From: Thermodesulfovibrionia bacterium
GTDB lineage: Bacteria > Nitrospirota > Thermodesulfovibrionia > JACRGW01
Length of the DNA: 64,000 bases
NCBI GenBank assembly: GCA_919902995.1
Contig: CAKKSD010000008.1
Span: forward strand, 10,922-74,921
Direction: 5' to 3'
This document shows positions 511-53,384 of this stretch, one piece after another. The translations under genes were made by a program, and so were the position numbers. The notes beneath the pieces were generated by a model. That model had not been told where the DNA came from. It ran no database searches and worked only from the letters and a program-made list of their open reading frames with translations. The stretch's first letter is position 1, and each line of letters starts with the position of its first letter.

Positions 511-877
511 TCTTTTTCATCAAATATTTTAACATGAGGTTATGACAGCAGGGTGTCAGTGGGGATTAAATAATAAAACCATAGGAAATCATCCAGTCCT
601 TGACAAAATCATTCATATCATTCATGTTCATATAATTGGCATGATGAAGAATATCAGCGATTAAGGAGTGTATAAGGGTACATAAGAATCAAGGATCCTG
701 CGGACAGGACACTCCTCTTTTTAAAGGGGATTCTTCAGGGTCTCCCCTCTATCAAGAGGGGATTAAGGGGTGTGTCTATAAGGGTATCCTGATTTTAGAA
801 GTGCAAAATTCCTTGTACCTTATTTTATGCGGAGGGAATCTAAGAGATTAGATTATTTTGGATAGTAATGAAATGCA

Positions 878-1612: not shown

Positions 1613-2128
1613 TCATGATTGGTTCTTTGCATCCGAGAGAACCTTTAGCCTCTTATGCATTATTATTTCTATGATTTCCTCGATTGCAGTTCGATCCTTG
1701 AGATCGAAATGGGAGACTTTCTTATTTATAATTTTTGGTACAGGCAGGTCTTTATTATTATCAACAATAAGGCATGGTGTATCGTCATCGGTCTCCCTGC
1801 AGAAACGGATATATTCATACCAGTAATTTTCACCCACGAGGTTTCTATCAATAACAGAGATGAAAAATGGAAGGGCGATTATATCCGGTGATGAAGGCTC
1901 ACCCCAGCAGACCTCGCAATTCAACCTCGTGGCTAATTCCCCAATCCTTGTTTCAAGATCCTTGTTTTCGAACATGCAGAAGATCGTCTTCATCCATGCC
2001 TTTTCCTTAAATTCACCGACTTCCATCCTATTTTCCCCTTCTCTAAAAGCAAGAAAAGATCCAGGATTGATTCCCATCGAAACCCCAGCCCCAATAAATC
2101 CCCTTAAAAAATCCCTCCTTTTAAGCAT
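1613..2128 (-). CDS. Tat-signal (RRDFLRG) exported protein of unknown function
   Basis: ORF track gives 171 aa. The N-terminal twin-arginine motif MLKRRDFLRGFIGAG is seen directly. The conserved island promoter/operator lies upstream at 2176-2193. Confidence 0.5.
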   Translation of the reverse strand: MLKRRDFLRGFIGAGVSMGINPGSFLAFREGENRMEVGEFKEKAWMKTIFCMFENKDLETRIGELATRLNCEVCWGEPSSPDIIALPFFISVIDRNLVGENYWYEYIRFCRETDDDTPCLIVDNNKDLPVPKIINKKVSHFDLKDRTAIEEIIEIIMHKRLKVLSDAKNQS

Positions 2129-2175
2129 AGCCCCTCCTTTTTATAAGATTTATAATTCATATTTATCATATTCCC

Positions 2176-2193
2176 CTGACAGCATTATGGCAG
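2176..2193. promoter_or_regulatory. 18-bp inverted-repeat operator-like motif CTGACAGCATTATGGCAG (copy A)
   Basis: Near-palindrome CTGACA-N6-TGNCAG. The flanking promoter region of about 75 bp is conserved with copy D. It lies upstream of minus-strand gene 1613..2128. Confidence 0.5.
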
Positions 2194-2290
2194 TATAAAG
2201 AATAATTTTCCGATAAAATATTTTTTATGGATGAATGCCAAGATAACTGGTTATTAGCTGCCTCAGATTAAAAAGAAAGACCTGACTCTC
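2176..2290. repeat. ~110-nt intergenic repeat family, copy 1 (starts with the operator motif)
   Basis: Shares ...gataactggtNattagctgNNNNagaNtaaaaagNaagNcc... with 3751-3850 and 4681-4790. Confidence 0.5.
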
Positions 2291-2456
2291 TTTGCCCTAG
2301 GAAGTCGAGGATTTTCAGATATAAGACTGGGGAATGAAGTTTGATGAGTAATACAGTAATAATCTCAGAGAAATAGGTTTTCGTACAAAAACTGCTTGAC
2401 AACAAACAAGAATCGTTGTACTTTGTAGTTATATAACTACAAAAATGGAGGATTAG

Positions 2457-2741
2457 ATGATAAAGGTAGGATTAAGAGAAGTAAACATCCATTTTTCAAA
2501 ATACATGAAAATGGTTAAAAAGGGCAGTGAGATTGTTTTGACTGATAGAGGATCACCTATCGCAGTTATTAAGCCTCTTGCTCAGAAGGAGGGTTCTCCT
2601 GAAGATAGAATCAAACTTCTGGAGGAGCAGGGTATTCTTCAAAAGGCAGTTAAGGTTAAGATTCCTATGCACAGGTTAATTAGTATTTCTGGAAAACCTG
2701 TTTCTAAGATTGTTATTGAAGGAAGGGAAAACAGGATTTAA
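2457..2741 (+). CDS. Phd/YefM-family type II antitoxin
   Basis: 94-aa ORF MIKVGLREVNIHFSKYMKMVKKGSEIVLTDRGSPIAVIKPL shows the typical Phd/YefM N-terminus. Stop overlaps the start of the downstream PIN gene (ATGA). Confidence 0.6.
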   Translation: MIKVGLREVNIHFSKYMKMVKKGSEIVLTDRGSPIAVIKPLAQKEGSPEDRIKLLEEQGILQKAVKVKIPMHRLISISGKPVSKIVIEGRENRI

Positions 2742-3178
2742 TGAAAGTCCCGTGGGGTTACTTCGATACCAGCACATATATAAAGCTCTATATCAAAGAG
2801 AATGGTTCTGAAGAGGCAAGAGAATCGGCAAGAAAAAATCGTATTCTTTCATCAGCTATACTACCAATAGAATGCTTTTCTGCTCTTTCATTGAAAAGGG
2901 ATATGGGTGATATTGTTAACGGTGAAATTGTAAAGCTGGCAACTATTATAAGAGAAGGCTTATCTTATGTTGAGCTTGTCAGGGTAACAGATGAGGTCTT
3001 AAAGAAGGCAGAGGAAATCTCTCTACTTGCTTCGGCAAGAGCCCTGGATGCCATTCACATAGCTTCGGCTTTGATCTTCAATGAGGCAACTGGGATAGAA
3101 TCTACTTTTATTACATCGGACAGTAAACAACTAAAGGTTGCTAATCATTTTGGCATGAAGACTTTATTTATCGGTTGA
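2741..3178 (+). CDS. vapC: PIN-domain ribonuclease toxin (VapC-like)
   Basis: 145 aa. YFDTS acidic motif near the N-terminus, further conserved Asp residues, and translational coupling to the antitoxin. Confidence 0.6.
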   Translation: MKVPWGYFDTSTYIKLYIKENGSEEARESARKNRILSSAILPIECFSALSLKRDMGDIVNGEIVKLATIIREGLSYVELVRVTDEVLKKAEEISLLASARALDAIHIASALIFNEATGIESTFITSDSKQLKVANHFGMKTLFIG

Positions 3179-3253
3179 TTATTTAAAAATAAATGCGGAT
3201 AAAAGTAGTAATAATTTAACAGGACATAGTCCAATTACCTTAGTGAAAATGTT

Positions 3254-3691
3254 TTAAAGTTGTCTGAGCCACGATCTCAATTCCTCAATATATTTCTCGG
3301 GTAGCCCCTGTTTTTCTGCGGCAGAAATAATCCTTTCCATATAACCATCCCAGGGAGAACCGATATCAGAATCTCCGGCAATATAGATTAATACTGAGGA
3401 TAACTTTCCATCCTGGGCCTCTATATCAACATAATCTTTCCTGTATGTCCCCCATCTAACGCCTTCATAAACATCCAGCGATTCCTCATCCCTTTTTGAA
3501 ATATTCCAGAGGATACCATAGACCACACCCGATGTATCTGGAACAACTGTGGCAACTCCATGTGTGTTAATAATAAATCGGTAACCCCGAAGGGTTGCCA
3601 TACTAACAGAAACTGCATCAGGACACCTTTCCCTTATCTGTCTATTGTCCATGTTCGAACCATATGCAAAATAGTACCTCTTACCAGACAT
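3254..3691 (-). CDS. gamma-glutamyl cyclotransferase (GGCT/AIG2-like) family protein
   Basis: YFAYGSNM motif at the predicted N-terminus (MSGKRYYFAYGSNMD...). The track ORF extends further upstream, but the internal ATG at 3689-3691 fits the family. Operator copy B lies upstream. Confidence 0.55.
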   Translation of the reverse strand: MSGKRYYFAYGSNMDNRQIRERCPDAVSVSMATLRGYRFIINTHGVATVVPDTSGVVYGILWNISKRDEESLDVYEGVRWGTYRKDYVDIEAQDGKLSSVLIYIAGDSDIGSPWDGYMERIISAAEKQGLPEKYIEELRSWLRQL

Positions 3692-3750
3692 GTTTATTCT
3701 CCACTCTACAATTATTTGCAAAACATTTAGTTCAACATTAACATATCCCC

Positions 3751-3768
3751 CTGCCAGCATTATGTCAG
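3751..3768. promoter_or_regulatory. operator-like inverted repeat CTGCCAGCATTATGTCAG (copy B)
   Basis: Same motif as copies A, D, E and F. Upstream of the GGCT-like gene and divergent from brnTA. Confidence 0.5.
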
Positions 3769-3850
3769 TTTGAAATGGATATTTCTGATTTACGAATGGA
3801 TACTGCCGGGATAACTGGTGATTAGCTGTATTGGACTAAAAAGCAAGGCC
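3751..3850. repeat. ~110-nt intergenic repeat family, copy 2
   Basis: High identity to 4681-4790 (ttacgaatggatactgccggg[a/c]taactggtgattagctgt...). Confidence 0.55.
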
Positions 3851-3993
3851 TAACCATAGCCCCTTGCCCTTGTCTCTGGAAGGATCTGCGAAGGGTTTTC
3901 CACATTGATATTGCCTTCTCATTAAAATAAAAGTATAATTGAATACGACTTTGTTTTAAGAAGGAAACAAAAAGTTTGCCATAGTATGTTTAA

Positions 3994-4302
3994 TACAAAG
4001 GGAGCATTCAACTGCCAATCATAATTGATGATATAATATGGCTGGATACAATAGTTGAAAAGATTGCATGGAAACATGGTGTGCTTCGGCACGAGGTAGA
4101 AGAAGTATTAACAGGCAATTGCAGGATATTCAAAAGAGAAAGCGGCAATATTGAAGGAGAAAATCTGTACAATGCCCTTGGCAGGGCTGAAAGCGGCAGG
4201 TATCTTTCAGTATTTTTTATCAGAAAGCTTAATAACAAGGCCCTAATTATAACTGCAAGAGATATGAACAAAAGGGAGAGGATAAGATATGAAAAAAAGT
4301 AG
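3994..4302 (+). CDS. brnT: BrnT-family ribonuclease toxin (DUF497); start codon unclear
   Basis: Open frame from 3994 encodes ...IAWKHGVLRHEVEEVLTGNCRIFKRESGNIEGENLYNALGRAESGRYLSVFFIRKLNNKALIITARDMNKRERIRYEKK, matching the BrnT core (KHGV...ITARxxxxxERxxYE). There is no in-frame ATG upstream of the conserved N-terminus. The track uses GTG at 4081. Confidence 0.5.
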   Translation, partial: YKGSIQLPIIIDDIIWLDTIVEKIAWKHGVLRHEVEEVLTGNCRIFKRESGNIEGENLYNALGRAESGRYLSVFFIRKLNNKALIITARDMNKRERIRYEKK

Positions 4303-4528
4303 GCGCAGAGAGATGACAATAACAGAGGCGAGCGACTATTTTGACGAGCACGATATTTTTGAGTTTAAAGATGTAAAAGAGGTCGCAGACATTAAATTCA
4401 GGCTGCAGAAAAAGAAATATGTGGGGCTTGATATGGAGCTTTTTAAGAAAATCAGAAGCAAGGCGAAAAAGCTCCATAAGAGCGAAGATATTCTTATTAA
4501 AGAATGGCTGATGGAGAAGGTAGGATAA
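4289..4528 (+). CDS. brnA: BrnA-family antitoxin
   Basis: 79 aa, overlaps the brnT 3' end. MTITEASDYFDEHDIFEF... is typical of BrnA (ribbon-helix-helix-like). Confidence 0.5.
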   Translation: MKKSRRREMTITEASDYFDEHDIFEFKDVKEVADIKFRLQKKKYVGLDMELFKKIRSKAKKLHKSEDILIKEWLMEKVG

Positions 4529-4680
4529 AAAACCTTATTTCCCCTGGAGCTAACCTTATCATTGGTGTAGGCTGGCCCCGCTGCTTTCCAATCCTGTTCC
4601 AATCTTTGTTAAGTCCTATAAAAAGAACACATGGATCCCTTCAATATATGAAATCAGGACAAAGGGAAGGGAATTAAAAA

Positions 4681-4790
4681 CTGCATTATGTCGGTTTGAA
4701 AATGGAGGGTTTAGATTTACGAATGGATACTGCCGGGCTAACTGGTGATTAGCTGTCTTAGACTAAAAAGCAAGACTTGACACTCCCAGC
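4681..4790. repeat. ~110-nt intergenic repeat family, copy 3 (carries only a half operator GCATTATGTCGG)
   Basis: Sequence identity with 3751-3850. Lies between brnA and the 3' end of the 68-aa gene. Confidence 0.5.
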
Positions 4791-4812
4791 TCTCGGTACT
4801 AATAATTATTGT

Positions 4813-5019
4813 CTAATTCAAAATGTATTTATTAAATTCTTCTATTGAATAATTGCCGCATTTATTGCTTCTCGCTTTAAAACAAGTTATTTCTCCTTTA
4901 TCAAAGAAGAATATATCATCGAAATCTGATTCCAAATTTTTATTTGGTTTTTTTAATGAGGATAGACTTTTATTATCACCATCAAAATCGCCTGCATTTA
5001 AGATTAATATTCTTTTCAT
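4813..5019 (-). CDS. small hypothetical protein (68 aa)
   Basis: The ORF is preceded by the same conserved promoter/operator region as gene 1613..2128 (copy D), which supports it being a real gene. Confidence 0.35.
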   Translation of the reverse strand: MKRILILNAGDFDGDNKSLSSLKKPNKNLESDFDDIFFFDKGEITCFKARSNKCGNYSIEEFNKYILN

Positions 5020-5185
5020 TTCAACCTCCTCTTTTATTGTTGTAAACAGCAGAGCCTAATAGCGAAAAGCATCAGGTCTTGAATTGTGAATCAAGCTGCC
5101 TCCTTTTTCAAATGCTAAGATCTGACGCCTCTTTTCTATTCCCTCCCTCTTTTAAAATTTATAACCCATATTTATCATATCTGCC

Positions 5186-5203
5186 CTGACAGCATTATGA
5201 CAG
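5186..5203. promoter_or_regulatory. operator-like inverted repeat CTGACAGCATTATGACAG (copy D)
   Basis: Perfect CTGACAG/CTGTCAG-type palindrome arms. The flank catatttatcatat is shared with copy A. Confidence 0.5.
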
Positions 5204-5360
5204 AGGAAATAATAATTTATTACGACAGGATTCTATTGGAAATAAGGGTGTAATGGATGATATATCTTTTAAAGAGGTTTTTCTCTGAATTGAAAAGACT
5301 GGCGGCAAAGGTTACCAGCACTAACTTTCTTATATTTAAATGCCTTACCATATGCTTCCT

Positions 5361-6674
5361 CTACTTAATGAATTTAATTGGCGTTTCTAAGATGCCTAAG
5401 CCTTCTCTGATTCTCTCCTTGATATCATCGATAAGATTATCCATTGAATCAAGTGCTTTTGCTTTTTCTGCAGGATACTCGTAGCTAAGACCTAATCCCG
5501 GGCAAACATTTATTCTATCCCGATTTGTTTTAAAGATCTGTGTGTCCAGTTCATCGTTCTTAAGAATTATTAGTTTTAATCTATCAAGTTCAGAAAGAAG
5601 TGTTCTAATTTCTTCTTTCCCATACTGATCAATTCTATTAACATTTTCTTTCCAGAAAGAATAGTAATCTTGCATAGATCCTTCAGGTGTTTTAAGCCAA
5701 ACAAGACCTAGTCGAATATGACTAAGATGAAAATTGGGGTCGCATTTCCATCCTTCATTGATAAGATGTTCAATTTTAGAATAATCTATTTTTCTATTGT
5801 AGAAAGACTTTGCTTGGCTTGATGTATCGCCAAAATACAGGCTTAACCAAAGACCTTTGAGTTTATCTTGATCAAAACCAATTTCAATTCCCACTTTTGC
5901 AATATCAGGCAGATCTGATTTGATATAATATGTCCAGCCCTTGTGATAATCCACTAAAGCTTCTTCCGTAGATACGCTCATAAGAATATTTTTTACTCTT
6001 TTTTCTATAAGTTCCCGATTGTTTTTGCAAAGGGTTAAATTATCATAAGGATTTAAGGAGGGAAAGTTTCTATTTATAAAGTCAAGAAAGTCTGAAATAA
6101 TTAACCCTTCTGCGCCTCCTACAGCATCTATCAAAAGTATTTCATTAAGCTTTTTGATTATTTCTTTCCATTCCAGTATGGCTGGGACTTTGACAAGTTG
6201 TGGTGTCGTATCCATATGTTCTTTATGTTCATCGATCCATTTCGACAGATTTGGATTAAGTTGTTCTTTCCACACATTTTCAGATTTAGGCTTGTTTTCA
6301 ATAATTAGAGTTAATTCATCTGAAAAAGATATAATGCCGTCGTATATCGCCCCACGATTAGAATTCTTTATATCGCTACTTATTTCTATTCTTTCATCAG
6401 TGATAAGAACGGATACAAATTGTCGAGCATTCTCTAAATTGCCAGTCTGTGTCCAAAACCTAATATTGGATCCCTTTATTTGAGATGTTTCTGGTATCTC
6501 TACAGAAATATATTCATTTCTCGCTAATCCTAACAAGCTGCTCCTCATGTAATCATAAAAAATAAATAACGCTAAAGGAGAATACCGCAGGACTATCAGA
6601 AAGGCTCGAGTTAATTGGTCTTCATGCCTGGCAATCTTCGAGATATAAGGTTCAAAATAGTTCAAGTAACTCAT
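5361..6674 (-). CDS. hypothetical protein with PD-(D/E)xK-like motif (putative nuclease)
   Basis: 437 aa. The segment ITDERIEISSD...GAIYDGIISFSDELTLIIENKPKS resembles D...(D/E)xK nuclease cores. Flanked by 14-bp direct repeats at 5371-5384 and 6748-6761. Confidence 0.4.
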   Translation of the reverse strand: MSYLNYFEPYISKIARHEDQLTRAFLIVLRYSPLALFIFYDYMRSSLLGLARNEYISVEIPETSQIKGSNIRFWTQTGNLENARQFVSVLITDERIEISSDIKNSNRGAIYDGIISFSDELTLIIENKPKSENVWKEQLNPNLSKWIDEHKEHMDTTPQLVKVPAILEWKEIIKKLNEILLIDAVGGAEGLIISDFLDFINRNFPSLNPYDNLTLCKNNRELIEKRVKNILMSVSTEEALVDYHKGWTYYIKSDLPDIAKVGIEIGFDQDKLKGLWLSLYFGDTSSQAKSFYNRKIDYSKIEHLINEGWKCDPNFHLSHIRLGLVWLKTPEGSMQDYYSFWKENVNRIDQYGKEEIRTLLSELDRLKLIILKNDELDTQIFKTNRDRINVCPGLGLSYEYPAEKAKALDSMDNLIDDIKERIREGLGILETPIKFIK

Positions 6675-6935: not shown

Positions 6936-7175
6936 TTAACCTTTCTCTATCTGTCTTGCCTTATTCCTAACTACCTCCAACGCCTTCTCTATATCCTCGG
7001 CATTTTCTTCTATGTAACTCAAGAAGGCGTTTTCTTCATCGCTTATAGGTTTATTTTCAAGCCTCTCATTAATCTTATTCCGTATGTCATAGGTATTTTC
7101 TTCAATTACATCGAGAAATATCTCTATTTCCTGAAATATATTTCTTGAATCGTTTTTCCTCAAGGTATCTGCCAT
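6936..7175 (-). CDS. small acidic hypothetical protein (79 aa), last gene of the nuclease operon
   Basis: ORF sits 5 nt downstream of the 346-aa gene on the same strand. Confidence 0.35.
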   Translation of the reverse strand: MADTLRKNDSRNIFQEIEIFLDVIEENTYDIRNKINERLENKPISDEENAFLSYIEENAEDIEKALEVVRNKARQIEKG

Positions 7176-7180
7176 ATTTT

Positions 7181-8221
7181 TTATTCCAGCACCTTTTTAA
7201 GCTCTTCAAGAAGGGTATTGGATTCTTCTTTGCTGAGGTAAGGAACCTTTATGGTTCTGTCCCAGAAAAATGATTTCCCTAATATTGATGATACATGGCT
7301 GAAAGGCAAGTACTTTTTGATGCCTTCAATCCTGCTGGGTATAGGTGCAAGAAATCTTACATCGCGGTATTTTTCTTCGTTAGCGTCATTATTCTTTGAT
7401 TGACCAATAACCTCTGCAGCAGCAATAATGCCGATCCATTTATGTGAATAAAATACTTTATCTTTGGGATGCAGATAATCCACATAATATCTGGCGTCTC
7501 CATAGGCAGAAACACGCTTATTCTCCAGCATATTCCAGATGGCATTTTCATCGTAACTTCGGTTTGTATCGAAAAGAACCCCTTTTATATCTCCAGGATT
7601 TCTATGTTTATCATAGGGTAAAGAGAAGAACTCGAAGTAATATTGGCCGGAAATACTGTAAACCCTATAAGGGATAAAATCCATTGAGATTCCCTGATGT
7701 TTCCAGTAATCAATAGCCTCAATCAGTTTTTCATCAGCTGCACTGCCAACAATCCATATATGCTGTTTCTGATTGAACTCATTGGGTAGTAGTTCTCTTT
7801 CGAGTTGAAAGGCTTCCAGATGGGCTTTCTGGAGTTCCTGACCGGTACTCTTCGAATATAACTTGAACTTTTCATTGAGTTCATTAAATGTCCATTGTCC
7901 AGCCTCCTGAGTATAACGAAGAGCCTGCTCAACAGCATTTCCACCAGCCTTAGATAGTTTAAGTTCAAAGATTATCAGATCACCTTTTTTGTTCAATGCA
8001 TATATATCCGCCACAGGTTGACCCCCTCTTTCTCTAAATATCGGCATTAATGGAACCTCTTCAAAAAGGATGTTAAATAAATTGTCTGTCAGTAATTTCT
8101 CTAAGTCCTCTTCTTTTTTCTGAAATACAGAAAAATCATAGAAAGGGATTGCATCTAATGCCTGTGGCAGCCCTTTTTCGATCGCAAACTTATAAAGCAT
8201 TTTAGCTTCCTCCTTCTTCAT
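7181..8221 (-). CDS. hypothetical protein with N-terminal PD-(D/E)xK-like motif
   Basis: 346 aa. PVADIYALNKKGDLIIFELKLSKAGGNAVEQALRY resembles a restriction-endonuclease-like core (D..D/E-L-K). Overlaps the upstream Cas4-like gene. Confidence 0.45.
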   Translation of the reverse strand: MKKEEAKMLYKFAIEKGLPQALDAIPFYDFSVFQKKEEDLEKLLTDNLFNILFEEVPLMPIFRERGGQPVADIYALNKKGDLIIFELKLSKAGGNAVEQALRYTQEAGQWTFNELNEKFKLYSKSTGQELQKAHLEAFQLERELLPNEFNQKQHIWIVGSAADEKLIEAIDYWKHQGISMDFIPYRVYSISGQYYFEFFSLPYDKHRNPGDIKGVLFDTNRSYDENAIWNMLENKRVSAYGDARYYVDYLHPKDKVFYSHKWIGIIAAAEVIGQSKNNDANEEKYRDVRFLAPIPSRIEGIKKYLPFSHVSSILGKSFFWDRTIKVPYLSKEESNTLLEELKKVLE

Positions 8222-9398
8222 TTAAAGTTCGTATATATATCTTTATCTCCTTATCACGTCGGGAAAAGTTAATGACCTTCATAATGATGTCTTTGTCCCA
8301 TGCTGATTCTGATAATATTTTCTCTAACTTATCTGTGCTTAAATTCGAGACTTCCTCCCATTTCCCTGCCTTCTTTATCAGTTCTTCAAGTTCAGCCCTT
8401 TCAGGTTCGCTTTTTGATGGAAACTTTAATGCATCCTTTTCGCTTATCTTCAGGATACAATCACTGCCCCTCAGTTGTGTTAAGCCTTCTTTATGGGCAT
8501 AGGAGATTATCTTCTCCCTCAGAACTTCAAGCTCATCACTAAATAATTTAACTTGTGCCTTTAATTCAACATAACGGTTTGCAAGGCTTACCCCATCGTC
8601 TTTAAGAAACTCTTCTGCTGGCAGGGTTTCCGTCTTTACGATATGTTTCTGGAATGGGCAGTATTCAGGAAAATCGCAGTATTCACATAGACTATTTTCT
8701 TTTGGCTTGAATTCAGTATCTGTCTTTATGGTCTCAATAAGTTCGACTGTCTTCTCCTCTGTTTCCTCAAGTTCTTCCTCTGTCTTCTCAATAGTGAATT
8801 CTTTATCAAATCTAAGATAGTGCCAGATGAGTTTTACCTTTTCGGCATCACGGTAATTCTGTTTGAGCCCTATCTGGTAGAGTGCAAGCTGTCTGTCGTT
8901 CTCGAGCCACTCATCGTGTGGCAGGTTTCTGGAGGTCTTGTAGTCATGAATCTCGTATATCTCACCATTACTAATATCAAGCCTGTCTATATACCCCCTG
9001 AAATTATATTTATCTTTGAGTTTAAAGGATAAATGTTTTTCTGTTGCAATAGTTCTTATATTGGTAAATGGCTGATAGCGTTTATAATAGTCCCTGATTA
9101 ACCTTTCACCTGTGTCATAGTAGTTCTCTTCAGAAATACCTTCTTTTCTGATAAGTATGTTCTGGTTCCAGTTCTTCGTCCACTCGGATTTATAGAAACT
9201 GAGGAGGTCATCAAGAGGATTTAATTTTGAAAGGATTAGGTCTTCATGGAGTTTTGCGAGGGTCTCATGAACCCTGATTCCAAGAAAAGCCTCTACACCT
9301 TCTATTTCCTCTACATCAACCTTATCTATATACTTAAGCTTGAACTTAAGGGGACAGGTTTCATAAGTAGAAATCATGCTATTTGAATATACTGGCAT
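8202..9398 (-). CDS. PD-(D/E)xK nuclease superfamily protein, RecB/Cas4-like with C-terminal Cys cluster
   Basis: N-terminal YETCPLKFKLKYI (RecB-family motif I), GYIDRLDISNGEIYEIHDYKTS (D..E.K core) and CEYCDFPEYCP (Cas4/AddB-type Fe-S Cys cluster). 398 aa with an extra C-terminal domain. Confidence 0.6.
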   Translation of the reverse strand: MPVYSNSMISTYETCPLKFKLKYIDKVDVEEIEGVEAFLGIRVHETLAKLHEDLILSKLNPLDDLLSFYKSEWTKNWNQNILIRKEGISEENYYDTGERLIRDYYKRYQPFTNIRTIATEKHLSFKLKDKYNFRGYIDRLDISNGEIYEIHDYKTSRNLPHDEWLENDRQLALYQIGLKQNYRDAEKVKLIWHYLRFDKEFTIEKTEEELEETEEKTVELIETIKTDTEFKPKENSLCEYCDFPEYCPFQKHIVKTETLPAEEFLKDDGVSLANRYVELKAQVKLFSDELEVLREKIISYAHKEGLTQLRGSDCILKISEKDALKFPSKSEPERAELEELIKKAGKWEEVSNLSTDKLEKILSESAWDKDIIMKVINFSRRDKEIKIYIRTLNEEGGS

Positions 9399-9450
9399 AT
9401 TATTTAGCCTCCTATATGTTTAAGTCTTGTTAGATTATATATAACTCTTA

Positions 9451-9467
9451 TGACAGCAGTATGTCAG
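9451..9467. promoter_or_regulatory. operator-like inverted repeat TGACAGCAGTATGTCAG (copy E) upstream of the nuclease operon
   Basis: Same motif family. 53 nt upstream of the start of the Cas4-like gene. Confidence 0.5.
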
Positions 9468-9518: not shown

Positions 9519-9588
9519 TGTCATTCCGCACTTGATGCGGAATCCAGTCTTTTGTTTATTTCTGGATTCCTGTTTCCACGGGAATGAC
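9519..9588. repeat. hairpin-rich intergenic element (gtcattccgcacttgatgcggaatcc ... ggattcc...gggaatgac)
   Basis: Nested inverted repeats. The track's spurious ORF 9514..9717 translates it (VIPHLMRNP). Positioned as a likely terminator downstream of the WYL gene. Confidence 0.4.
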
Positions 9589-9623
9589 TACTTTTTTAAA
9601 GAAATGCGAGTTGTTAAACAAGC

Positions 9624-10604
9624 TCAGTGTCCCTTTAATGCATCACCGAGTTCCCTTTTAACCTGTTTCCTGAGCCATTGGGGCTTAATTACTTCAACAT
9701 CTGGAATCCATGAATAGATCCATCTCTTGATTTCATCCACACCGGCAACAGTGAATGAGAGTTCCACATCCCCTGAAGGAAGGATATTCCTTTTTTCTGA
9801 GGGATGCCACTTTTCTCTCCTTGTGATATACTCGGCTACCTTCTTGGAAAACCTCAGGGTGACATCAACTGCATCATCCTCGTATATCCCCCAGCTCTGA
9901 GAGAGATGATCTTCAATATCAAATTCGCCACGAAAATAATGCCACCTCTCTTTTATGTCTTTAATCCTGTCAATATCAAAATGCCTTAACCTGTTCCTTA
10001 AATGACAGTACCCTATCAGAGTCCATGTCCCCTGATAGAATACCAGTCCGTAAGGGTCTACTTCCCTCTTTGTGACCTCTTTGCTATGGAGGGCTTTATA
10101 GATAATTTCGATCGAGCGTTTCTCTTTAATACAGTCTGAGATAATATTAAAATAGTTATTTAATCTCTCGGTCATGATAGCGTCAGGGATCTTTACGACA
10201 ATAGGAACCCTTGAGGGGAATTTGGTTATATTCGTCATATTAGTTATTAACCTCTTGAAATCTTCCTCAAAGGGCTTACCGAGATGTGAGACCGCCTCAC
10301 CCATTGTGAGGAGCAGCAGAAGTTCTCTATCAGAGAGGGCTGTTTTCTTTATGCGGTCAGTATTCACAAATCTATACCCCTTTCTCTCCTTGTCAAACTC
10401 TATAGTATCTATCATATTTATTATCTCAAGATACCTGTAAACAGTCCTTTCCTTTACTTCGAATTCCTCAGAAAGATATCCTACTGATGGGTATTTGTTC
10501 TGTGCAATCAGGGTGTAGGCTTTAAGGATATTGATAACCTTCTCTGATATGCCAGCAGGTTTGGATTTCTTATGTTTAAGGTTTTTAAAGGGAGGCTTTT
10601 TCAT
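9624..10604 (-). CDS. WYL-domain transcriptional regulator (BrxR/CapW-like, HTH + WYL)
   Basis: 326 aa. N-terminal wHTH (YLSEEFEVKERTVYRYLEII), central WYL-type segment (DPYGLVFYQGTWTLIGYCHLRNRLRHFDIDRI) and a C-terminal domain. Operator copy F lies upstream. Confidence 0.65.
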   Translation of the reverse strand: MKKPPFKNLKHKKSKPAGISEKVINILKAYTLIAQNKYPSVGYLSEEFEVKERTVYRYLEIINMIDTIEFDKERKGYRFVNTDRIKKTALSDRELLLLLTMGEAVSHLGKPFEEDFKRLITNMTNITKFPSRVPIVVKIPDAIMTERLNNYFNIISDCIKEKRSIEIIYKALHSKEVTKREVDPYGLVFYQGTWTLIGYCHLRNRLRHFDIDRIKDIKERWHYFRGEFDIEDHLSQSWGIYEDDAVDVTLRFSKKVAEYITRREKWHPSEKRNILPSGDVELSFTVAGVDEIKRWIYSWIPDVEVIKPQWLRKQVKRELGDALKGH

Positions 10605-10703
10605 GTTTTATCTTATCTGATTATTACCCTGTATTCCACTCCGAATAATTACCTTATTGACATAATGAAAAGGGCTTTAATATTTTAATTATAGCATATT
10701 TAA

Positions 10704-10721
10704 CTGACAGCACTATGACAG
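10704..10721. promoter_or_regulatory. operator-like inverted repeat CTGACAGCACTATGACAG (copy F) upstream of the WYL regulator gene
   Basis: Palindromic arms CTGACAG/CTGTCAG, about 85 nt upstream of the regulator start. Consistent with an autoregulatory site. Confidence 0.5.
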
Positions 10722-11529: not shown

Positions 11530-12344
11530 TGGATATCACCTTTTACTGGATAACCCTAAGTTTATATTTTATTTCAACATCCCTTTCTATAGTCTACATT
11601 TTCAGACGGCAAGGAATACTTTTCAAGGGTTCTCTCGCCTTTACAGCATTCGGTTTTTTTACACATACCCTAAGTATTCTAATAAGATTCTATGAGTCTT
11701 CCCATCTCCCAATAACGAACTTCTCTGAAGCAACATCTTTCTTCAGCTGGTGTATCGTACTGCTCTTCTTCTTTCTCGAATATAGATACAGGATAGGCCT
11801 TCTGGGTTCCTTTATACTCCCCTTTGTGGTCGTACTTCTTCTCTCTTCTTCCGCCCTTCCCTCCGAGATAAAACCCCTGAACCCTCTACTACGGAGTTAC
11901 TGGCTTGGAATACATACAGTTTTTGTCTTTCTCGGTAATGCAGCCTTTGCACTTGCCTCAGGTGTCGGGATTATGTATCTGATACAGGAAAAATATGTGA
12001 AGTCCAGACACCCCGGTGGTCTCTTCGAAAGGCTACCGAGCCTGCAGATCCTCGATGAGGTAAATTACAGACTTATAACCTTAGGATTTCCATTCCTGAC
12101 CCTCGCAATAATCTCGGGTGCATTATGGGCAGAGAAGACCTGGGGAAGTTACTGGAGGTGGGACCCGAAAGAAGTCTGGTCACTAATCACATGGTTTTTA
12201 TACGCCCTTGTATTTCATGTAAGATTTGTCTCCGGTTGGAGGGGAAAGAAGGCGGCGATACTTTCTATTATCGGTTTTGCCTCTGTTCTTTTCACATTCT
12301 TAGGGATCAGGTTCCTTATTAAAGGCATCCATATATTTGAATGA
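11520..12344 (+). CDS. ccsA: cytochrome c assembly protein CcsA-like (hemA-associated)
   Basis: Polytopic membrane protein with the WGSYWRWDPKEVWSL motif (WGxxWxWDxxE) typical of CcsA/ResC. Lies directly upstream of hemA. Confidence 0.7.
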   Translation: MLLMDITFYWITLSLYFISTSLSIVYIFRRQGILFKGSLAFTAFGFFTHTLSILIRFYESSHLPITNFSEATSFFSWCIVLLFFFLEYRYRIGLLGSFILPFVVVLLLSSSALPSEIKPLNPLLRSYWLGIHTVFVFLGNAAFALASGVGIMYLIQEKYVKSRHPGGLFERLPSLQILDEVNYRLITLGFPFLTLAIISGALWAEKTWGSYWRWDPKEVWSLITWFLYALVFHVRFVSGWRGKKAAILSIIGFASVLFTFLGIRFLIKGIHIFE

Positions 12345-13630
12345 GCATTATAGTAGTTGGTCTTAATCACAGAACTGCCGATATCGAGATGAGGGAGAGG
12401 TTTGCCTTCCCCAGAGAGAAGCTTGCAGAAGGTCTGAAAGAATTACTCTCAATCGAAGAGATAAGGGAGGGTATTATCCTTTCAACCTGTAACAGGGTTG
12501 AAGTCTATTGTGTTATCTTTGATCCTGCTGATGGTGAAAGGGAGATAAAGACCTTCCTCTCAGACTTCCACAATGTCCCCCTCGAAAAACTGGAATTAAT
12601 TCTATACACATATAAGAAGGAGGACGCAGTAAGGCATGTCTTCAGGGTTGCATCAAGCCTGGATTCGATGGTCTTAGGAGAACCGCAGATACTCGGCCAG
12701 ATTAAAGACGCATACAGTAAGTCACTTGTACTGAATACAACAGGTGTAATTCTAAACCGTCTTATTAAGAAGGCGATCTCTGTTGCAAAGAAGGTGAGGA
12801 CAGAGACGAGGATTGGAGAGAATGCAGTTTCTATAAGTTATGTTGCGGTAGAACTCGCAAAAAAAATCTTTGAGGATATACATGTAAGGACATCTATGCT
12901 CCTCGGAGCAGGGGATATGGCTGAACTCGCTGCAAGACATCTCTTGAAAAGTGGAGTAAAGGGTATAACAGTGGCTAACAGAACCTATGGGCGGGCTGTT
13001 GAGCTTGCAGCGGAACTCAAAGGAACAGCTGTAAAGTGGGAGGATTTCCTTAAAGAGATGCTTTATACGGATATAGTGATCTGTTCTACAGGTGCCTCAG
13101 GATATGTCTTTACAGATGAACAGGCAAGGAGATTGATGAAGGAGAGGAGACACAAACCGATCTTCATCATAGATATATCCGTTCCCAGGAATATAGACCC
13201 TGCTGTAAATGAAATCGACAATATATATCTCTATAATATCGATGACCTTCAGGATATCGTAGATTCAAATATTCTCGAGAGAAGAAAAGAGGCAGAGGCT
13301 GCAGAAGGAATTGTGGGTAAAGCGGTGGAGAGTTTCCTCGCCTGGGAGAAGTCCCTCGAAGCTGTACCAACGATAGTGGAAATCAAGGAAAGGATGGAAG
13401 TTATAAGAAAGGAAGAACTCGAAAAGATAATGAACAAACTTAACGGAATGAGTGAGAGGGAAATAAAGATAGTAGAGGCACTTACGGCTTCTATAGTGAA
13501 TAAGATCCTCCATCCTTCTCTATCAGTCCTCAAGGAAGAGATAGACCCTGAGAACAGGGCTACCTACATATATCTCGCAAGGAGGCTTTTCGGTCTCGAC
13601 AGGGAAGAGGGTATTGGAGAGGATAATTAA
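12341..13630 (+). CDS. hemA: glutamyl-tRNA reductase
   Basis: LSTCNRVEVY active-site motif, NADP-binding GAGDMAELAARHL, 429 aa. Confidence 0.9.
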   Translation: MSIIVVGLNHRTADIEMRERFAFPREKLAEGLKELLSIEEIREGIILSTCNRVEVYCVIFDPADGEREIKTFLSDFHNVPLEKLELILYTYKKEDAVRHVFRVASSLDSMVLGEPQILGQIKDAYSKSLVLNTTGVILNRLIKKAISVAKKVRTETRIGENAVSISYVAVELAKKIFEDIHVRTSMLLGAGDMAELAARHLLKSGVKGITVANRTYGRAVELAAELKGTAVKWEDFLKEMLYTDIVICSTGASGYVFTDEQARRLMKERRHKPIFIIDISVPRNIDPAVNEIDNIYLYNIDDLQDIVDSNILERRKEAEAAEGIVGKAVESFLAWEKSLEAVPTIVEIKERMEVIRKEELEKIMNKLNGMSEREIKIVEALTASIVNKILHPSLSVLKEEIDPENRATYIYLARRLFGLDREEGIGEDN

Positions 13631-49657: not shown

Positions 49658-49686
49658 AGAAAAAATGAAGTTGATTCATTTTTTTC
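49658..49686. terminator. AT-rich hairpin gaaaaaatgaa-gttgat-tcatttttttc downstream of the NYN gene
   Basis: 9-bp stem followed by a T run. Immediately abuts the first cassette repeat. Confidence 0.35.
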
Positions 49687-49740
49687 TCTTCTTTATCAAT
49701 GTCAACAGATCATTTAACTGGTGGTTGTCGATGAGTCGCA
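49686..49740. repeat. cassette-boundary repeat R1 (divergent copy)
   Basis: tcttctttatcaatgtcaacagatcatttaactggtggttgtcgatgagtcg, compared with the consensus TTCTCCTTTATCAATGTCAATAAATCATTCGGCTGGCGGTTGTCGATGACTCGTAGAGAAGTA. Confidence 0.55.
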
Positions 49741-49767
49741 TCTAAATAAAGTGTCTCAAAGGTTTTT

Positions 49768-50169
49768 TTACTTAAATATCTCTTCAAAATCTTTGGGCTT
49801 TATAATTTTTGTATTATGAAATGGATTTAAAGCAAGGAGATCTTCATCTCCTGTAACGAGATGATCAGCTTTTCCCTCCAATGCTACTTCAAGCAGAAAA
49901 TTATCCTTTTCATCCCTGCAGGCATTAACCTTCTGGCTTGGCGAAACTACTATTGCATAACCATCAAGAAGTGAAAATAGCTCCTTGATTCTCCTGGAAG
50001 TAAAAATATTCTTAAATTTTGGGCGGCTTGATACTTCACTAAGCTCTTTCAACATCTCATCTGATAAGACAACTTTTATCTCTTTTGAAAGTATCTTTTC
50101 ATCTATGCCCTGTAAAAGGCTTCCGAGCAAGTAACTGATCCATATATTGGTATCAATTACGACTTTCAT
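49768..50169 (-). CDS. PIN-domain toxin (VapC-like)
   Basis: MKVVIDTNIWISYL start with conserved Asp. 133 aa. Overlaps the antitoxin gene. Confidence 0.6.
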   Translation of the reverse strand: MKVVIDTNIWISYLLGSLLQGIDEKILSKEIKVVLSDEMLKELSEVSSRPKFKNIFTSRRIKELFSLLDGYAIVVSPSQKVNACRDEKDNFLLEVALEGKADHLVTGDEDLLALNPFHNTKIIKPKDFEEIFK

Positions 50170-50398
50170 ATCGTTCTTGTCTTACAGCCTCTACCTCTTT
50201 GGTGATCTCCTCTATTGTTATAGGATATTTTCTTGCAGACTCTCTAAACTCCTTTAAAAGACTTTTAAATCTCGTAGCAAAAAGTTCTTCTTCCAACATT
50301 GTCAATACTTTTATTTTCATTTCTACTGGCAAATTCTTTACAGTCTTTTTAATTTTATTTAAGTCTGCATTCGAAATTGTTTTTAACATTACCAACAC
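50153..50398 (-). CDS. putative antitoxin partner of the PIN toxin (81 aa)
   Basis: Small upstream overlapping ORF. An identical copy exists at 51592..51837. Confidence 0.45.
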   Translation of the reverse strand: MLVMLKTISNADLNKIKKTVKNLPVEMKIKVLTMLEEELFATRFKSLLKEFRESARKYPITIEEITKEVEAVRQERYESRN

Positions 50399-50554
50399 CT
50401 CCTTAGTCCTCTTGTATTGTTTTTTATATTGGGATTTCCGTATCTATAATATGGGTCATAACTTATTCTTGAAAAGAGTATTCATATTTTTTGATTTCTT
50501 CTAAAGTTTCCTATATATATTCTATGTGTTCTTACCCATTTATACAATATTTAT

Positions 50555-50603
50555 TTTTCTTTTATAAGTGTCAATAAATCATTCGGCTGGCGGTTGTCGA
50601 TGA
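50555..50603. repeat. cassette-boundary repeat R2
   Basis: ttttcttttataagtgtcaataaatcattcggctggcggttgtcgatga. Confidence 0.6.
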
Positions 50604-50646
50604 TTAGTATAGCAGATGAGCGTGCAGGTACACTTTTGTAAAACCT

Positions 50647-50994
50647 TTATAAAGGCAAGAATTCTACTCTATTAGCCAAATCTTCAGGTTCTCCGGATTG
50701 TGCAATTATTTCTAAGTCCTTGATGCAGGCTCCAATTGAAATGTTTAAAGGAGATGTATAAATTACTCCCGAAAATGGAATTGATAACCTTTGCCTTTTT
50801 GCAGCCTCTACCAATAAATCATCATCAAAAGTAAAAAGCACACGATTTAATACAGTCGCACGCTCTAACAATTCAGAATCGGAAAGTTTATCAGCATTGT
50901 CTTCTTGCGCTGTAAGAAGATCAATTCCTCGTAACCGGAGTCCATTTGTAACAGCCTTTGGTATATGGGCATCCATATAAAGCTTAATAGCCAC
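50647..50994 (-). CDS. DUF5615-family PIN-like toxin
   Basis: MAIKLYMDAHIPKAVTNGLRLRGIDLL. Paralogous to 23044..23409. Confidence 0.5.
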   Translation of the reverse strand: MAIKLYMDAHIPKAVTNGLRLRGIDLLTAQEDNADKLSDSELLERATVLNRVLFTFDDDLLVEAAKRQRLSIPFSGVIYTSPLNISIGACIKDLEIIAQSGEPEDLANRVEFLPL

Positions 50995-51311
50995 TACAAT
51001 AACCCAGAGGCCTTTAATCTTTCTTTCAAGGGAGATTTTTCAGGGGCTTTATATTGCATAATACCCTTCAGGCGTTGCTCAATATCTTTATTAAGTTTCT
51101 CTTCATTGTCATAATAATAGGCCAGCGCCGAATGGATCTGCCCCAAGGTCAAATAAGGGTGCTGTAGATGTAATTCCTCAGGACTCCACCCATACGCTAC
51201 CTTTTCGGCCACAAGTTCAACCACCTTCATGGTAGTGCCTGCAATAAAAGGAATCCCTTTCTCGTCAATAGTAATATGCTCATATTTAGTTTCTACTGAA
51301 TGCATATGCAC
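50994..51311 (-). CDS. DUF433-family antitoxin
   Basis: ITIDEKGIPFIAGTTMKVVELVAEKVAYGWSPEELHLQHPYLTLGQIHSALAYYYDNEE. Paralogous to 23406..23645. Confidence 0.5.
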   Translation of the reverse strand: MHMHSVETKYEHITIDEKGIPFIAGTTMKVVELVAEKVAYGWSPEELHLQHPYLTLGQIHSALAYYYDNEEKLNKDIEQRLKGIMQYKAPEKSPLKERLKASGLL

Positions 51312-51382
51312 CTCCCTATTATTGCTTAATTATACCATAGATAGTGAAATAGCTCTTTATTATTTTTAATGCGATGAAAATT

Positions 51383-51468
51383 TCTTCTTTTATCAATGTC
51401 GCCAATAAATCATTCGGCTGGCGGATGTCGATGACTCATTTACGACCCGTAGGATAGAGAAGTAGCAC
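51383..51468. repeat. cassette-boundary repeat R3 (long form with a 20-nt insert)
   Basis: ttcttcttttatcaatgtcgccaataaatcattcggctggcggatgtcgatgactcatttacgacccgtaggatagagaagtagcac. Confidence 0.6.
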
Positions 51469-51480
51469 TTTTCTTTTCAA

Positions 51481-51530
51481 TCAATGCCTTTAAGTTGTTA
51501 TGAGCATCGGGTTGGTGGTTCTAATTAAAG
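51481..51530. repeat. degenerate cassette-boundary repeat R3b
   Basis: caatgcctttaagttgttatgagcatcgggttggtggttctaattaaagtg aligns with R1 caatgtcaacagatcatttaactggtggttgtcgatgagtcgcatctaaataaagtg. Confidence 0.4.
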
Positions 51531-51540
51531 TGTCTTAAAG

Positions 51541-51606
51541 GTTTTTTACTTAAATATCTCTTCAAAATCTTTGGGCCTTATAATTTTGGTATCAATTACG
51601 ACTTTC
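51541..51606 (-). pseudogene. vapC (PIN) remnant with internal deletion
   Basis: Only the 3' end (ttacttaaatatctcttcaaaatctttggg.cttataatttt) and the start-codon region (gtatcaattacgactttcat) of the 49768..50169 PIN gene remain, fused together. Confidence 0.55.
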
Positions 51607-51837
51607 ATATCGTTCTTGTCTTACAGCCTCTACCTCTTTGGTGATCTCCTCTATTGTTATAGGATATTTTCTTGCAGACTCTCTAAACTCCTTTAAAAGA
51701 CTTTTAAATCTCGTAGCAAAAAGTTCTTCTTCCAACATTGTCAATACTTTTATTTTCATTTCTACTGGCAAATTCTTTACAGTCTTTTTAATTTTATTTA
51801 AGTCTGCATTCGAAATTGTTTTTAACATTACCAACAC
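51592..51837 (-). CDS. putative antitoxin, exact duplicate of 50153..50398, now orphaned
   Basis: Identical 81-aa translation in the ORF track. The upstream leader is also duplicated. Confidence 0.45.
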   Translation of the reverse strand: MLVMLKTISNADLNKIKKTVKNLPVEMKIKVLTMLEEELFATRFKSLLKEFRESARKYPITIEEITKEVEAVRQERYESRN

Positions 51838-52004
51838 CTCCTTAGTCCTCTTGTATTGTTTTTTATATTGGGATTTCCGTTCTGTAGCTTTATCAATACC
51901 TCTTTCATTAGAATCTACCTCCTTCTTCTGTAAGAATATTTCTTAACAATTTTAGGATTCCTATACATATTCTATGTGTTCTTACCCATTTATACAGTAT
52001 TTAT

Positions 52005-52070
52005 TTTTCTTTTATAAGTGTCAATAATTCATTCGGCTGGCAGTTGTCGATGACTCGTAGAGAAGTATAT
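52005..52070. repeat. cassette-boundary repeat R4
   Basis: ttttcttttataagtgtcaataattcattcggctggcagttgtcgatgactcgtagagaagtatatgag. Confidence 0.6.
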
Positions 52071-52145
52071 GAGTAGTCTCTCAAGACTCTTCCTTTTGAA
52101 ATTTTCGTTTTTAAATCGTTGCTGACCTATTTGAGATACAACCAG

Positions 52146-52355
52146 TTAATGGGCCAGTGTCTTGGTATGAATGATTTTTAGACCCAGTGCTTTAACTGTA
52201 TCCTCAGTAGCCTTGCGAGTTTTTTCAATAAGTTCTCTTGGAGAGAGATTTTTTGTTTCGTTGTAGTCTTCTTCTCGGACCTTGTGAATCCATTCCAAAG
52301 ATTTATATCTCCATTTCTTCATATTCAACCACCTCCTCTGGTGATATAATCTCAA
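52146..52355 (-). CDS. small basic protein (69 aa), probable partner of the upstream PIN protein
   Basis: Overlaps the PIN gene's 3' end. No family recognised. Confidence 0.3.
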   Translation of the reverse strand: MRLYHQRRWLNMKKWRYKSLEWIHKVREEDYNETKNLSPRELIEKTRKATEDTVKALGLKIIHTKTLAH

Positions 52356-52806
52356 TAGGCTTATAGCCCATCCTTAAATTGATACTATTAATCACTCTCC
52401 GCACGGTTATATTCACCATATGCCTGTAATTCCAGGAGACAATGAAATCAACTTCATGGTATACGCCGATTGCAATATGTCTGGCATCATTGCGATACTT
52501 AGCAGGAATAACCTCATCATTTACATAGACGTCTGATAACTCAATACATTCCTCGGTCTCTTCAAGTATCTTTAATCCCGCTTCAGTAATCGCACTCTTT
52601 AATTTTTCCTGTATTTCATGGGGAGCCTTCAAAATCTCCTCTAAGGTAAGAAAAGAAATAAATCCTTCATAAAGTCCATCTTTGATTAATCTGATAAGGC
52701 TCTCTGCTTTTTTTATTCTTTCAGCATCCGCTATATCAAAAAGCCCACCAAGAACTGATGTATCTATATACAGACTTGCCTTTTTCATCCATCCTTCTTT
52801 TCTCAT
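52303..52806 (-). CDS. PIN-domain protein (VapC-like)
   Basis: ASLYIDTSVLGG...YRNDARHIAIGVYHEVDFIVSWN shows PIN acidic residues. Confidence 0.5.
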   Translation of the reverse strand: MRKEGWMKKASLYIDTSVLGGLFDIADAERIKKAESLIRLIKDGLYEGFISFLTLEEILKAPHEIQEKLKSAITEAGLKILEETEECIELSDVYVNDEVIPAKYRNDARHIAIGVYHEVDFIVSWNYRHMVNITVRRVINSINLRMGYKPIEIISPEEVVEYEEMEI

Positions 52807-52949
52807 CTCTTCTTATCTCTACGACATGAGATAAGAGGGTAAAGTATTTTTGAATTAGTATACCCCAAAATAAGATAAGGTAAAAGCAAAAAAATCAGAA
52901 TAATAATATCGAATATGAGAAATAAAGGAGTTTGACATGCTCAGGACTT

Positions 52950-53013
52950 TTTCCCCTCTATCAATGTCAATAAATCATTTGGCTGGCGGTTGTCGATGAC
53001 TCGTAGAGAAGTA
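52950..53013. repeat. cassette-boundary repeat R5
   Basis: ttcccctctatcaatgtcaataaatcatttggctggcggttgtcgatgactcgtagagaagta. Confidence 0.6.
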
Positions 53014-53071
53014 AATAAGCAGTTTTCAAGATCTTTCCTGATGCTTCAATCCACCAGTGCATAGATATCAA

Positions 53072-53302: not shown

Positions 53303-53384
53303 ATCTACCTTCTTCTTGATGAACTTTTTTATTGAGCTGTATTTTTTAGTGAATCTTTAAAGGCATCGCTAAAGAGAACCTCCA

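Follow-up and report, generated by a model that had tools for sequence, protein, structure and literature searches.

Module B, a repeated intergenic element that is probably the flank of a copied WYL-controlled promoter module in a toxin-antitoxin and defence island of a Thermodesulfovibrionia bacterium

Introduction

Putative mobile promoters (PMPs) are homologous non-coding stretches of at least 50 nt, sharing at least 80% identity, that precede the start codons of non-homologous genes by no more than about 150 nt (Matus-Garcia et al. 2012, PMC3488235). Their families are small, quickly diverging and strain-variable, and the stretches typically measure from 50 to more than 100 nt (PMC3488235). 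A second point of reference is BrxR, a WYL regulator of defence islands, whose boxes consist of 10-11-bp arms separated by a 5-bp spacer and which has two such sites in pEFER (Picton et al. 2022, PMC9122601). A third is provided by the PafBC-dependent RecA-NDp promoters of Actinobacteria, where a WYL regulator acts as an activating heterodimer at a non-palindromic, TGTCAG-containing site located immediately upstream of the -10 box (PMC6789036). Here, we analyze a repeated block of about 105 nt, termed module B, in a 64-kb stretch of contig CAKKSD010000008.1 from a Thermodesulfovibrionia bacterium (Nitrospirota). This whole stretch is referred to as the window, and loci compared with it carry designations such as L003 or L069.

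The explanation that we favor, with moderate confidence, is that module B represents the flank of a copied WYL-controlled promoter module, whose direct repeats mediate the gain and loss of gene cassettes and whose third copy is a relic of such an event. Module B would then not be an independent unit but the upstream flank of a promoter-operator module copied several times within a toxin-antitoxin (TA) and defence island of about 13 kb. Binding of a WYL regulator to the palindromes of these modules would place the minus-strand units of the island under a single BrxR/CapW-like control, and module B may have been carried along as the modules were duplicated or recombined. The resulting direct repeats would serve as substrates for homologous recombination, by which the segments between them are inserted or deleted; such recombination would explain why co-occurring strains have 0, 2 or 3 copies and why copy 3 is devoid of a promoter.

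Results

Three direct copies of module B

The core of module B reads TAACTGGTnATTAG, and the element occurs as three direct copies in the window (Table 1). A repeat search grouped them into a single family (2205-2286, 3773-3854 and 4700-4781, with identities of 62%, 100% as the reference, and 87%, respectively). Similarly, a profile built from five distinct variants delimited them at 2207-2308, 3769-3879 and 4695-4800, with E-values from 1e-26 to 2e-31, and found the window otherwise empty. The 18-nt core ATAACTGGTGATTAGCTG was matched three times with at most one mismatch, compared with 0.04 matches expected by chance. Three copies with an extended core had been proposed at these places by the initial annotation, and all three search types (repeat, profile and core-pattern) support that description. 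Its estimate of about 85% identity between copies 2 and 3 proved close to the 87-89% obtained here (89% over 92 nt with blastn), while copy 1 is a far more diverged subtype with only about 62% identity to copy 2. The placement of copies 1 and 2 in divergent intergenic regions facing phd/vapC and brnTA was also correct.

Table 1. Position and description of the main features. Coordinates refer to the window, except for the three related loci in the last rows, which have their own numbering; c1 to c3 denote the modules at copies 1 to 3, and c4 a fourth promoter module.
Feature	Position	Strand	Description
Module B copy 1	2194-2309		Diverged; upstream of minus-strand promoter; repeat and profile searches
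Module B copy 2	3769-3881		Repeat, core-pattern and profile searches
Module B copy 3	4695-4804		Directly 3' of 68-aa gene (stop codon 4813); 87-89% identity to copy 2
c1 promoter core and leader	2132-2175	-	CTGCCA-17-TATGAT; -10 box TATGAT 2170-2165; ribosome-binding site GGAGGGG; 84-86% identity to 5141-5180
c1 operator	2176-2193		CTGACAGCATTATGGCAG; upstream of 171-aa gene (1613-2128, minus strand)
c2 promoter core and leader	3691-3750	-	-10 box TATGTT 3745-3740; for GGACT/AIG2-like gene
c2 operator	3751-3768		CTGCCAGCATTATGTCAG; upstream of GGACT/AIG2-like gene (start probably 3690)
c3 truncated operator	4681-4694		ctGCATTATGTCGG; left half-site and -10 box absent; no minus-strand gene downstream
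c4 module	5141-5240	-	Leader relic, -10 box, operator 5186-5203, C-type upstream flank; 68-aa gene (4813-5019) downstream
Operator	9450-9467		Upstream of PD-(D/E)XK (Cas4-like) / PDC-S11-like / 79-aa operon (6936-9398, minus strand)
Operator	10704-10721		In promoter of WYL regulator gene
Operator variant	543-558		ATGACAGCAGGGTGTCAG (feature extent 541-558); upstream of AAA (IetA-like) ATPase gene running off the left window end
HTH-WYL-WCX transcription regulator	9624-10604	-	326 aa; Pfam WYL 4e-22, WCX 4e-17, HTH_11 1e-5; PADLOC WYL 5e-39
phd/vapC operon	2457-3178	+	Own predicted promoter at ~2395; between copies 1 and 2, outside the repeat
brnT/brnA operon	4012-4528	+	Between copies 2 and 3; brnT start uncertain
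L030 (syntenic)	5742, 7510		Palindromes; WYL protein 79% identical to window protein
L031	12036, 12432		Palindromes; WYL protein 63% identical; variant identical to the window 543-558 site beside WYL gene
L035	7989		Palindrome; WYL protein 64% identical

Module B as the upstream flank of promoter-operator modules

An 18-bp palindrome, CTGACAGCATTATGTCAG, was searched for in the window with up to three mismatches allowed, and five matches with one or two mismatches were obtained, compared with 0.11 expected. In total, the palindromes comprise six full sites and one truncated site, all of them in one orientation within the first 10.7 kb; the remaining 53 kb has no such site. Predicted minus-strand promoters, whose consensus resembles that of sigma-70 (CTGnCA-17/18-TATGAT), overlap the palindrome (CTGACA-N6-TGTCAG) with their -35 box and spacer. 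According to the promoter scan, a half-site provides the -35 box, located 17-18 nt before a TATGAT or TATGTT -10 box, in c1, c2 and c4, and in these same three modules a ribosome-binding site (RBS) and a start codon follow 30-150 nt beyond the -10 box. Read along the minus strand, the order of elements is module B (with a T-tract and a weak hairpin), about 20 nt of AT-rich sequence, CTGnCA-N6-TGnCAG, TATGAT, the leader with its RBS, and the gene. Seen from the regulated gene, module B is thus located beyond the palindrome, at roughly -45 to -150 from the predicted start, and therefore lies outside those minus-strand transcripts. It is missing at the other three or four operator sites of the window (5186, 9450 and 10704, plus the variant at 543-558).

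The initial annotation had described the element as beginning with the operator. This is true of copies 1 and 2, which have a full palindrome, but not of copy 3, where only GCATTATGTCGG, amounting to 12 of the 18 palindrome bases, is left and the left half-site has been swapped for unrelated DNA. Copy 3 is a dead promoter relic, because the left half-site, the -10 box and a downstream minus-strand gene are all missing. The proposal that the repeat might be a promoter of the TA operons can be retained only in part: its operator end does belong to minus-strand promoters, but these drive the 171-aa, GGACT and 68-aa genes rather than the TA operons. For the GGACT gene, the 168-aa call begins inside the operator (3760), and a 143-aa form starting at 3690 (MSGKRYYFAYGSN) is more likely; the gene call in L003 has the 143-aa form.

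The promoter and leader of c1 are shared with c4 over 80 nt at 84-86% identity, whereas their upstream extensions differ, the C-type flank of c4 having only the TTACGAnnGGATnCT block in common with module B. The c4 leader (5141-5180) is a relic of the copy 1 leader (2132-2171) in which the RBS has been kept and the start codon has changed from ATG to ATA, and the 68-aa gene starts about 120 nt past this relic with an RBS of its own. This arrangement suggests that the gene downstream of the c4 promoter was replaced.

These features invite comparison with PMPs. The c1/c4 pair shares its 80 nt upstream of the unrelated 171-aa and 68-aa genes, and both this pair and c2/c3 (92 nt, 89%) have the length and identity that characterize a PMP, whereas the module B portions of c1 and c2 are too diverged. 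With respect to position, the promoter-proximal part lies upstream of the 171-aa, GGACT and 68-aa genes, as well as of the 344-aa and 63-aa genes of L003, while module B itself is situated about 65-180 nt upstream, mostly beyond the -150 limit, and copy 3 has no downstream gene. In operational terms, the promoter-proximal part would count as a PMP (PMC3488235). In contrast to PMPs, the copies described here are clustered in one island instead of being dispersed, and they carry a recognizable regulator operator.

A WYL regulator associated with the palindrome

The closest named homologues of the HTH-WYL-WCX regulator are found in metagenome-assembled genomes (MAGs) of Nitrospirae/Nitrospirota, and the source is a Hainich aquifer metagenome. 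Near-identical palindromes are located about 0.1-3.4 kb from WYL homologues in five other Nitrospirota loci (L030, L031, L035, L046 and L058). From the palindrome side, a GTDB-wide pattern scan returned 27 matches, compared with roughly 35 estimated by chance; among these matches, only the two loci with at least two palindromes carry a WYL gene, which is adjacent in both cases (L046, from Ca. Magnetobacteriaceae, and L058, from Thermodesulfovibrionales, Hainich H41). In this island, and likewise in L030, L046 and L058, the palindrome is present in the regulator's own promoter as well as in other promoters. The link between WYL genes and the palindrome holds in both search directions. Together with the analogy to BrxR (PMC9122601), this makes it most probable that the palindrome serves as operator for the regulator encoded at 9624-10604; both the binding and the sign of regulation are inferred.

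In L031, the palindrome (12036-12449) lies upstream of an operon for a 740-aa double-AAA ATPase, and in L035 (7989-8006) it lies upstream of a UvrD/PD-(D/E)XK (AddAB-like) helicase-nuclease operon. The position of these palindromes before double-AAA ATPase and AddAB-like operons suggests that this WYL clade has a conserved DNA-damage or defence regulon. Within the island, PADLOC gave partial matches to PDC-S11 (2e-18), Cas4-like (4e-14) and IetA-like (2e-17) proteins, left several proteins unmatched, and recognized no canonical defence system (BREX, CBASS and so on).

The resemblance to BrxR/CapW lies in an HTH-WYL-WCX regulator at the edge of the island, with an inverted-repeat site in its own promoter and further sites inside the island, among neighbors that include nuclease, ATPase and TA genes. 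However, the arms and spacer are both 6 bp here, the sites number six or seven, and the neighborhood differs from that of BrxR in the lack of a canonical system noted above. A further likeness concerns PafBC: in the promoters of the WYL gene (10682-10721) and of the PD-(D/E)XK gene (9430-9467), TGTCAG/T is followed by TATAAT exactly 10 nt later. The mycobacterial PafBC RecA-NDp motif is TGTCAGTG-N8-TAnnnT. Unlike that system, the site here is a palindrome. This PafBC-like geometry hints at an activator-type "sigma adaptation" rather than repression.

Strain variants and recombination between modules

Contigs from several samples of the same aquifer reveal at least three haplotypes, of which the window itself (haplotype W) has all three copies of module B. 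Two copies are present in L003, where brnTA is absent and a single element, c2-like on its left and c3-like on its right, retains an intact promoter that drives a 63-aa ORF and the GGACT gene; this hybrid element joins window position 3714 to 4683. In addition, L003 has a 344-aa ORF in place of the 171-aa gene after the copy 1 promoter and an extra c4-type module at its positions 1-84. No copy of module B is present in L069, in which one c1/c4 hybrid module is all that separates the 171-aa gene from the 437-aa gene region and the segment 2210-5136 is absent (junction of window 2209 to 5137). There, the 171-aa gene keeps its promoter and operator with a C-type flank instead of module B, which shows that this promoter exists without module B. 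Other variants include L013, where phd/vapC is replaced by another RHH-type gene with a breakpoint at 3245, outside any module, and three Logan contigs that end or diverge at 4683-4684.

The breakpoints are mostly inside promoter modules, where they affect the -10 region (2159), the leader (3714) or the arm/spacer boundary of the palindrome (4683) and thus vary in position. Such a pattern is more in keeping with homologous recombination and gene conversion between direct repeats than with site-specific exchange. Variants of the c1 leader are mosaics of the c1 and c4 types, which points to gene conversion.

A base difference within module B distinguishes the strains. The W strain has ATTAGCTG in all three copies (2253-2260, 3821-3828 and 4748-4755), while L003 (1412-1419 and 3206-3213) and L005 have ATTAGAT(G/A) in both of their copies instead.

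Some observations weigh against the view of module B as a flank that was merely carried along. The C-to-A change that turns ATTAGCTG into ATTAGAT is found in both copies of the L003/L005 strain without homogenization of the neighboring diagnostic bases, and simple drift does not predict such a concerted single-base change. A core of about 50 nt (TGCCnnGnTAACTGGTnATTAG...AAAAAGnAAG) is approximately 80% identical between the diverged subtypes despite their drifted flanks, a similarity that might be due to a binding site under selection and not to common ancestry or gene conversion. The terminator hairpin discussed below is reasonable in copies 1 and 2 but not in copy 3 or the L003 copy. Finally, the binding of the regulator, the sites where transcription starts and the direction in which recombination proceeded rest on inference. 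The core conservation and the shared base change do not fit neatly with the favored explanation and keep a cis-regulatory role alive.

Alternative explanations

Under such a role, which we consider unlikely, module B would be a functional upstream element tuning the adjacent promoters, either as a platform for a second factor or as an auxiliary or looping site for the WYL regulator. Consistent with this, none of the five distinct variants departs from the core TAACTGGTnATTAG or the AAAAAG block, the TTACGAnnGGATnCT block persists even in the otherwise different C-type flank, the distal end, some 100 nt away from the operator, has a half-site-like CTGAC/TTGACA, and the concerted C-to-A change took place within one strain. 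However, copies 1 and 2 are not helically phased, their spacings between core and predicted start being 7 nt apart; copy 3 holds module B without a promoter; and L069, together with all other operator-bearing promoters here and in the five other loci, manages without module B. Nor does module B contain a palindrome or a recognized motif. Readings of its core as an IHF site, a DnaA box, a sigma-54 promoter or alternative -10/-35 boxes gave no convincing match by eye, and a degenerate second operator (10 of 18 palindrome positions, at unconserved spacings of 52, 53 and 59 bp) was dismissed as numerology.

Under the favored explanation, any activity that module B may have of its own would most likely be that of a weak intergenic terminator or insulator for the preceding minus-strand gene. 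The one recurrent feature is a T5 tract at its minus-strand start, which is invariant in all copies. Copies 1 and 2 have an acceptable hairpin before this tract (-13.9 kcal/mol in copy 2), whereas those of copy 3 and L003 are poor, so that a terminator or insulator between successive minus-strand units is weakly supported.

A different proposal treats the promoter-operator modules as recombination sites of an integron-like cassette system, in which cassettes such as brnTA integrate and excise at the palindrome and module B serves as an accessory arm; we regard this as improbable. The palindrome does have the shape of a tyrosine-recombinase core, with 6-bp inverted arms, an asymmetric 6-bp spacer and a single orientation, and the breakpoint at copy 3 coincides precisely with the transition from arm to spacer (CTGCCA|GCATTATG), this 4683 junction being the main support. 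Moreover, segments between modules are present or absent among strains, and direct copies flank brnTA as they would after integration of a circle. On the other hand, the junctions at 2159, 3714 and 3245 lie elsewhere (in the -10 region, in the leader and outside modules, respectively), so that site-specific recombination at the palindrome was rejected, with one junction fitting and the others not. The flanking copies differ by 11-13%, the same palindrome occurs in the regulator's own promoter in distant genera, as fits an operator, and no recombinase gene was detected among the scanned island proteins (Pfam/PADLOC) or the TA genes (precomputed Pfam).

As in integron attC sites and sedentary cassette arrays, repeats of about 100 nt punctuate short, strain-variable cassettes that include TA pairs. 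In contrast to attC sites, the repeats here have no imperfect-palindrome hairpin and no conserved RYYYAAC/GTTRRRY cores (GCCTAAC is found in copy 2 only), and an inverted-repeat search revealed no attC-type hairpin common to the copies. The cassettes are in both orientations, the repeats carry promoters, and the island proteins scanned with Pfam and PADLOC contain no integrase domain. DNA folds of module B on both strands gave z-scores of -1.0 to +1.0, and a tRNA/tmRNA scan for an att-site origin found none. A related scheme, for which we see an equally slim chance, dispenses with the integrase: the modules would be junctions of an integrase-free or unrecognized cassette-exchange system, with module B again as an accessory arm and with TA and defence cassettes swapped at WYL-controlled promoters. 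If this were true, cassette exchange at the modules would wire each incoming cassette automatically to the single regulator of the island.

Two other suggestions of the initial annotation, namely a small regulatory RNA and a leader common to the TA operons, are very unlikely. The intergenic location of the element, its repetition beside TA operons and weak plus-strand promoter-like matches that use the left half-site in copy 1 and c4 are compatible with these ideas. However, single-sequence RNA folds on both strands were no better than shuffles (z from -1.6 to +1.5), and the consensus fold of five variants over about 135 nt (RNAalifold) was weak, at -5.8 and -8.6 kcal/mol with covariation terms of -0.5 and +0.8, five sequences giving this test low power. 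Rfam yielded no hit at the gathering threshold in the window and, at E<=5, nothing overlapping the copies. The copies also have no conserved pair of promoter and terminator: copy 2 is devoid of a plus-strand -10 box, copy 3 of a -35 box, and no plus-strand terminator is present. A small ORF in copies 2 and 3 (MDTAGITGD*) was rejected, given that its frame shifts in copy 1 and that it has no RBS; more generally, the 9-14-codon frame is not kept between subtypes. As for the leader, the predicted promoters of phd (~2395) and brnT (~3911) are located 30-85 nt past the repeat, and the L003 copy with an intact promoter adjoins the 68-aa gene and has no TA neighbor. Because the TA promoters lie beyond the repeat and this L003 copy has such a neighbor, module B is unlikely to be a TA leader.

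Although it is short, repeated and part of a variable island, module B can scarcely be a miniature inverted-repeat transposable element (MITE) that dispersed the operator, as had also been proposed, because it shows neither terminal inverted repeats common to the three copies nor target duplications, all copies share one orientation within a 2.6-kb stretch, no further copies were found in the window, related loci, GTDB genomes, JGI metagenome contigs, plasmids or phages, and the operator, found apart from the repeat both in this window and in other genera, is the older and more widely distributed of the two.

The searches behind that result covered several collections. The module B profile (nhmmer) recovered only the known copies from the window and all fetched loci, with none in the five operator-bearing WYL loci, and the exact pattern had no match in GTDB genomes. 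Two exact-pattern matches in JGI metagenome contigs were discarded as chance occurrences inside unrelated coding sequences, and blastn against plasmids and phages gave no match. Like MITEs and repetitive extragenic palindromic (REP) elements, module B is a short intergenic repeat, but it differs from them in having no inverted ends, hairpin or dispersal and only three local copies. We conclude that module B belongs to none of three classes: attC sites, MITEs and known RNAs. As speaking against its own proposals, the initial annotation had named the lack of conserved structure or transcription, together with copies explained by simple local duplication. With regard to structure, and with copies explained by local duplication and recombination, this is essentially what we observe.

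Other features of the window

The reading frame of brnT extends back to 3994 and has an RBS at about 3997, but its first canonical start codon is a GTG at 4081. On the minus strand at 858-1380, hicB-like and hicA-like ORFs each have exactly one in-frame stop, while L005 has an intact 88-aa ORF; pseudogene formation or sequencing errors, among other causes, could account for the interruptions. Paired hairpins (GTCATTCCGCACTTGATGCGGAAT ... ATTCCTGTTTCCACGGGAATGAC) occupy 9520-9590, in the interval that separates the WYL gene from the operator next to it. This is the single such site in the window, and a nearly identical sequence, GTCATTCCGCACTCGATGCGG, lies just past an operator in L058, a Thermodesulfovibrionales MAG (5727-5750). 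These hairpins may represent a REP-like or terminator element.

A second TA-like cassette array is located on the minus strand at 49685-53914 and includes PIN_3, DUF5615/DUF433 and DUF6364 genes. Between the cassettes lie six copies of another intergenic element of about 74 nt (49685, 50554, 51385, 52004, 52950 and 53841), whose minus-strand sequence is GAGTCATCGACAACCGCCAGCCGAATGATTTA, with TTGACA (-35 box) and TATAAAT (-10 box) coming next. The array also holds a perfect duplication of 298 nt (50144-50441 and 51583-51880). Promoter modules repeated between cassettes may be a general habit of this genome.

Significance

Taken alone, module B is of limited importance, as a lineage-specific piece of promoter flank. 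Its wider setting is more informative: six or seven promoters appear to be under the control of a single WYL regulator, by way of a palindrome conserved across Nitrospirota genera, and several presence/absence breakpoints that distinguish strains of the same aquifer coincide with the repeated promoter modules. This locus thus offers a testable example of how defence and TA islands stay co-regulated while their content turns over, with "promoter propagation" and repeat-mediated recombination going together, and it supplies a candidate operator for an uncharacterized clade of WYL regulators.

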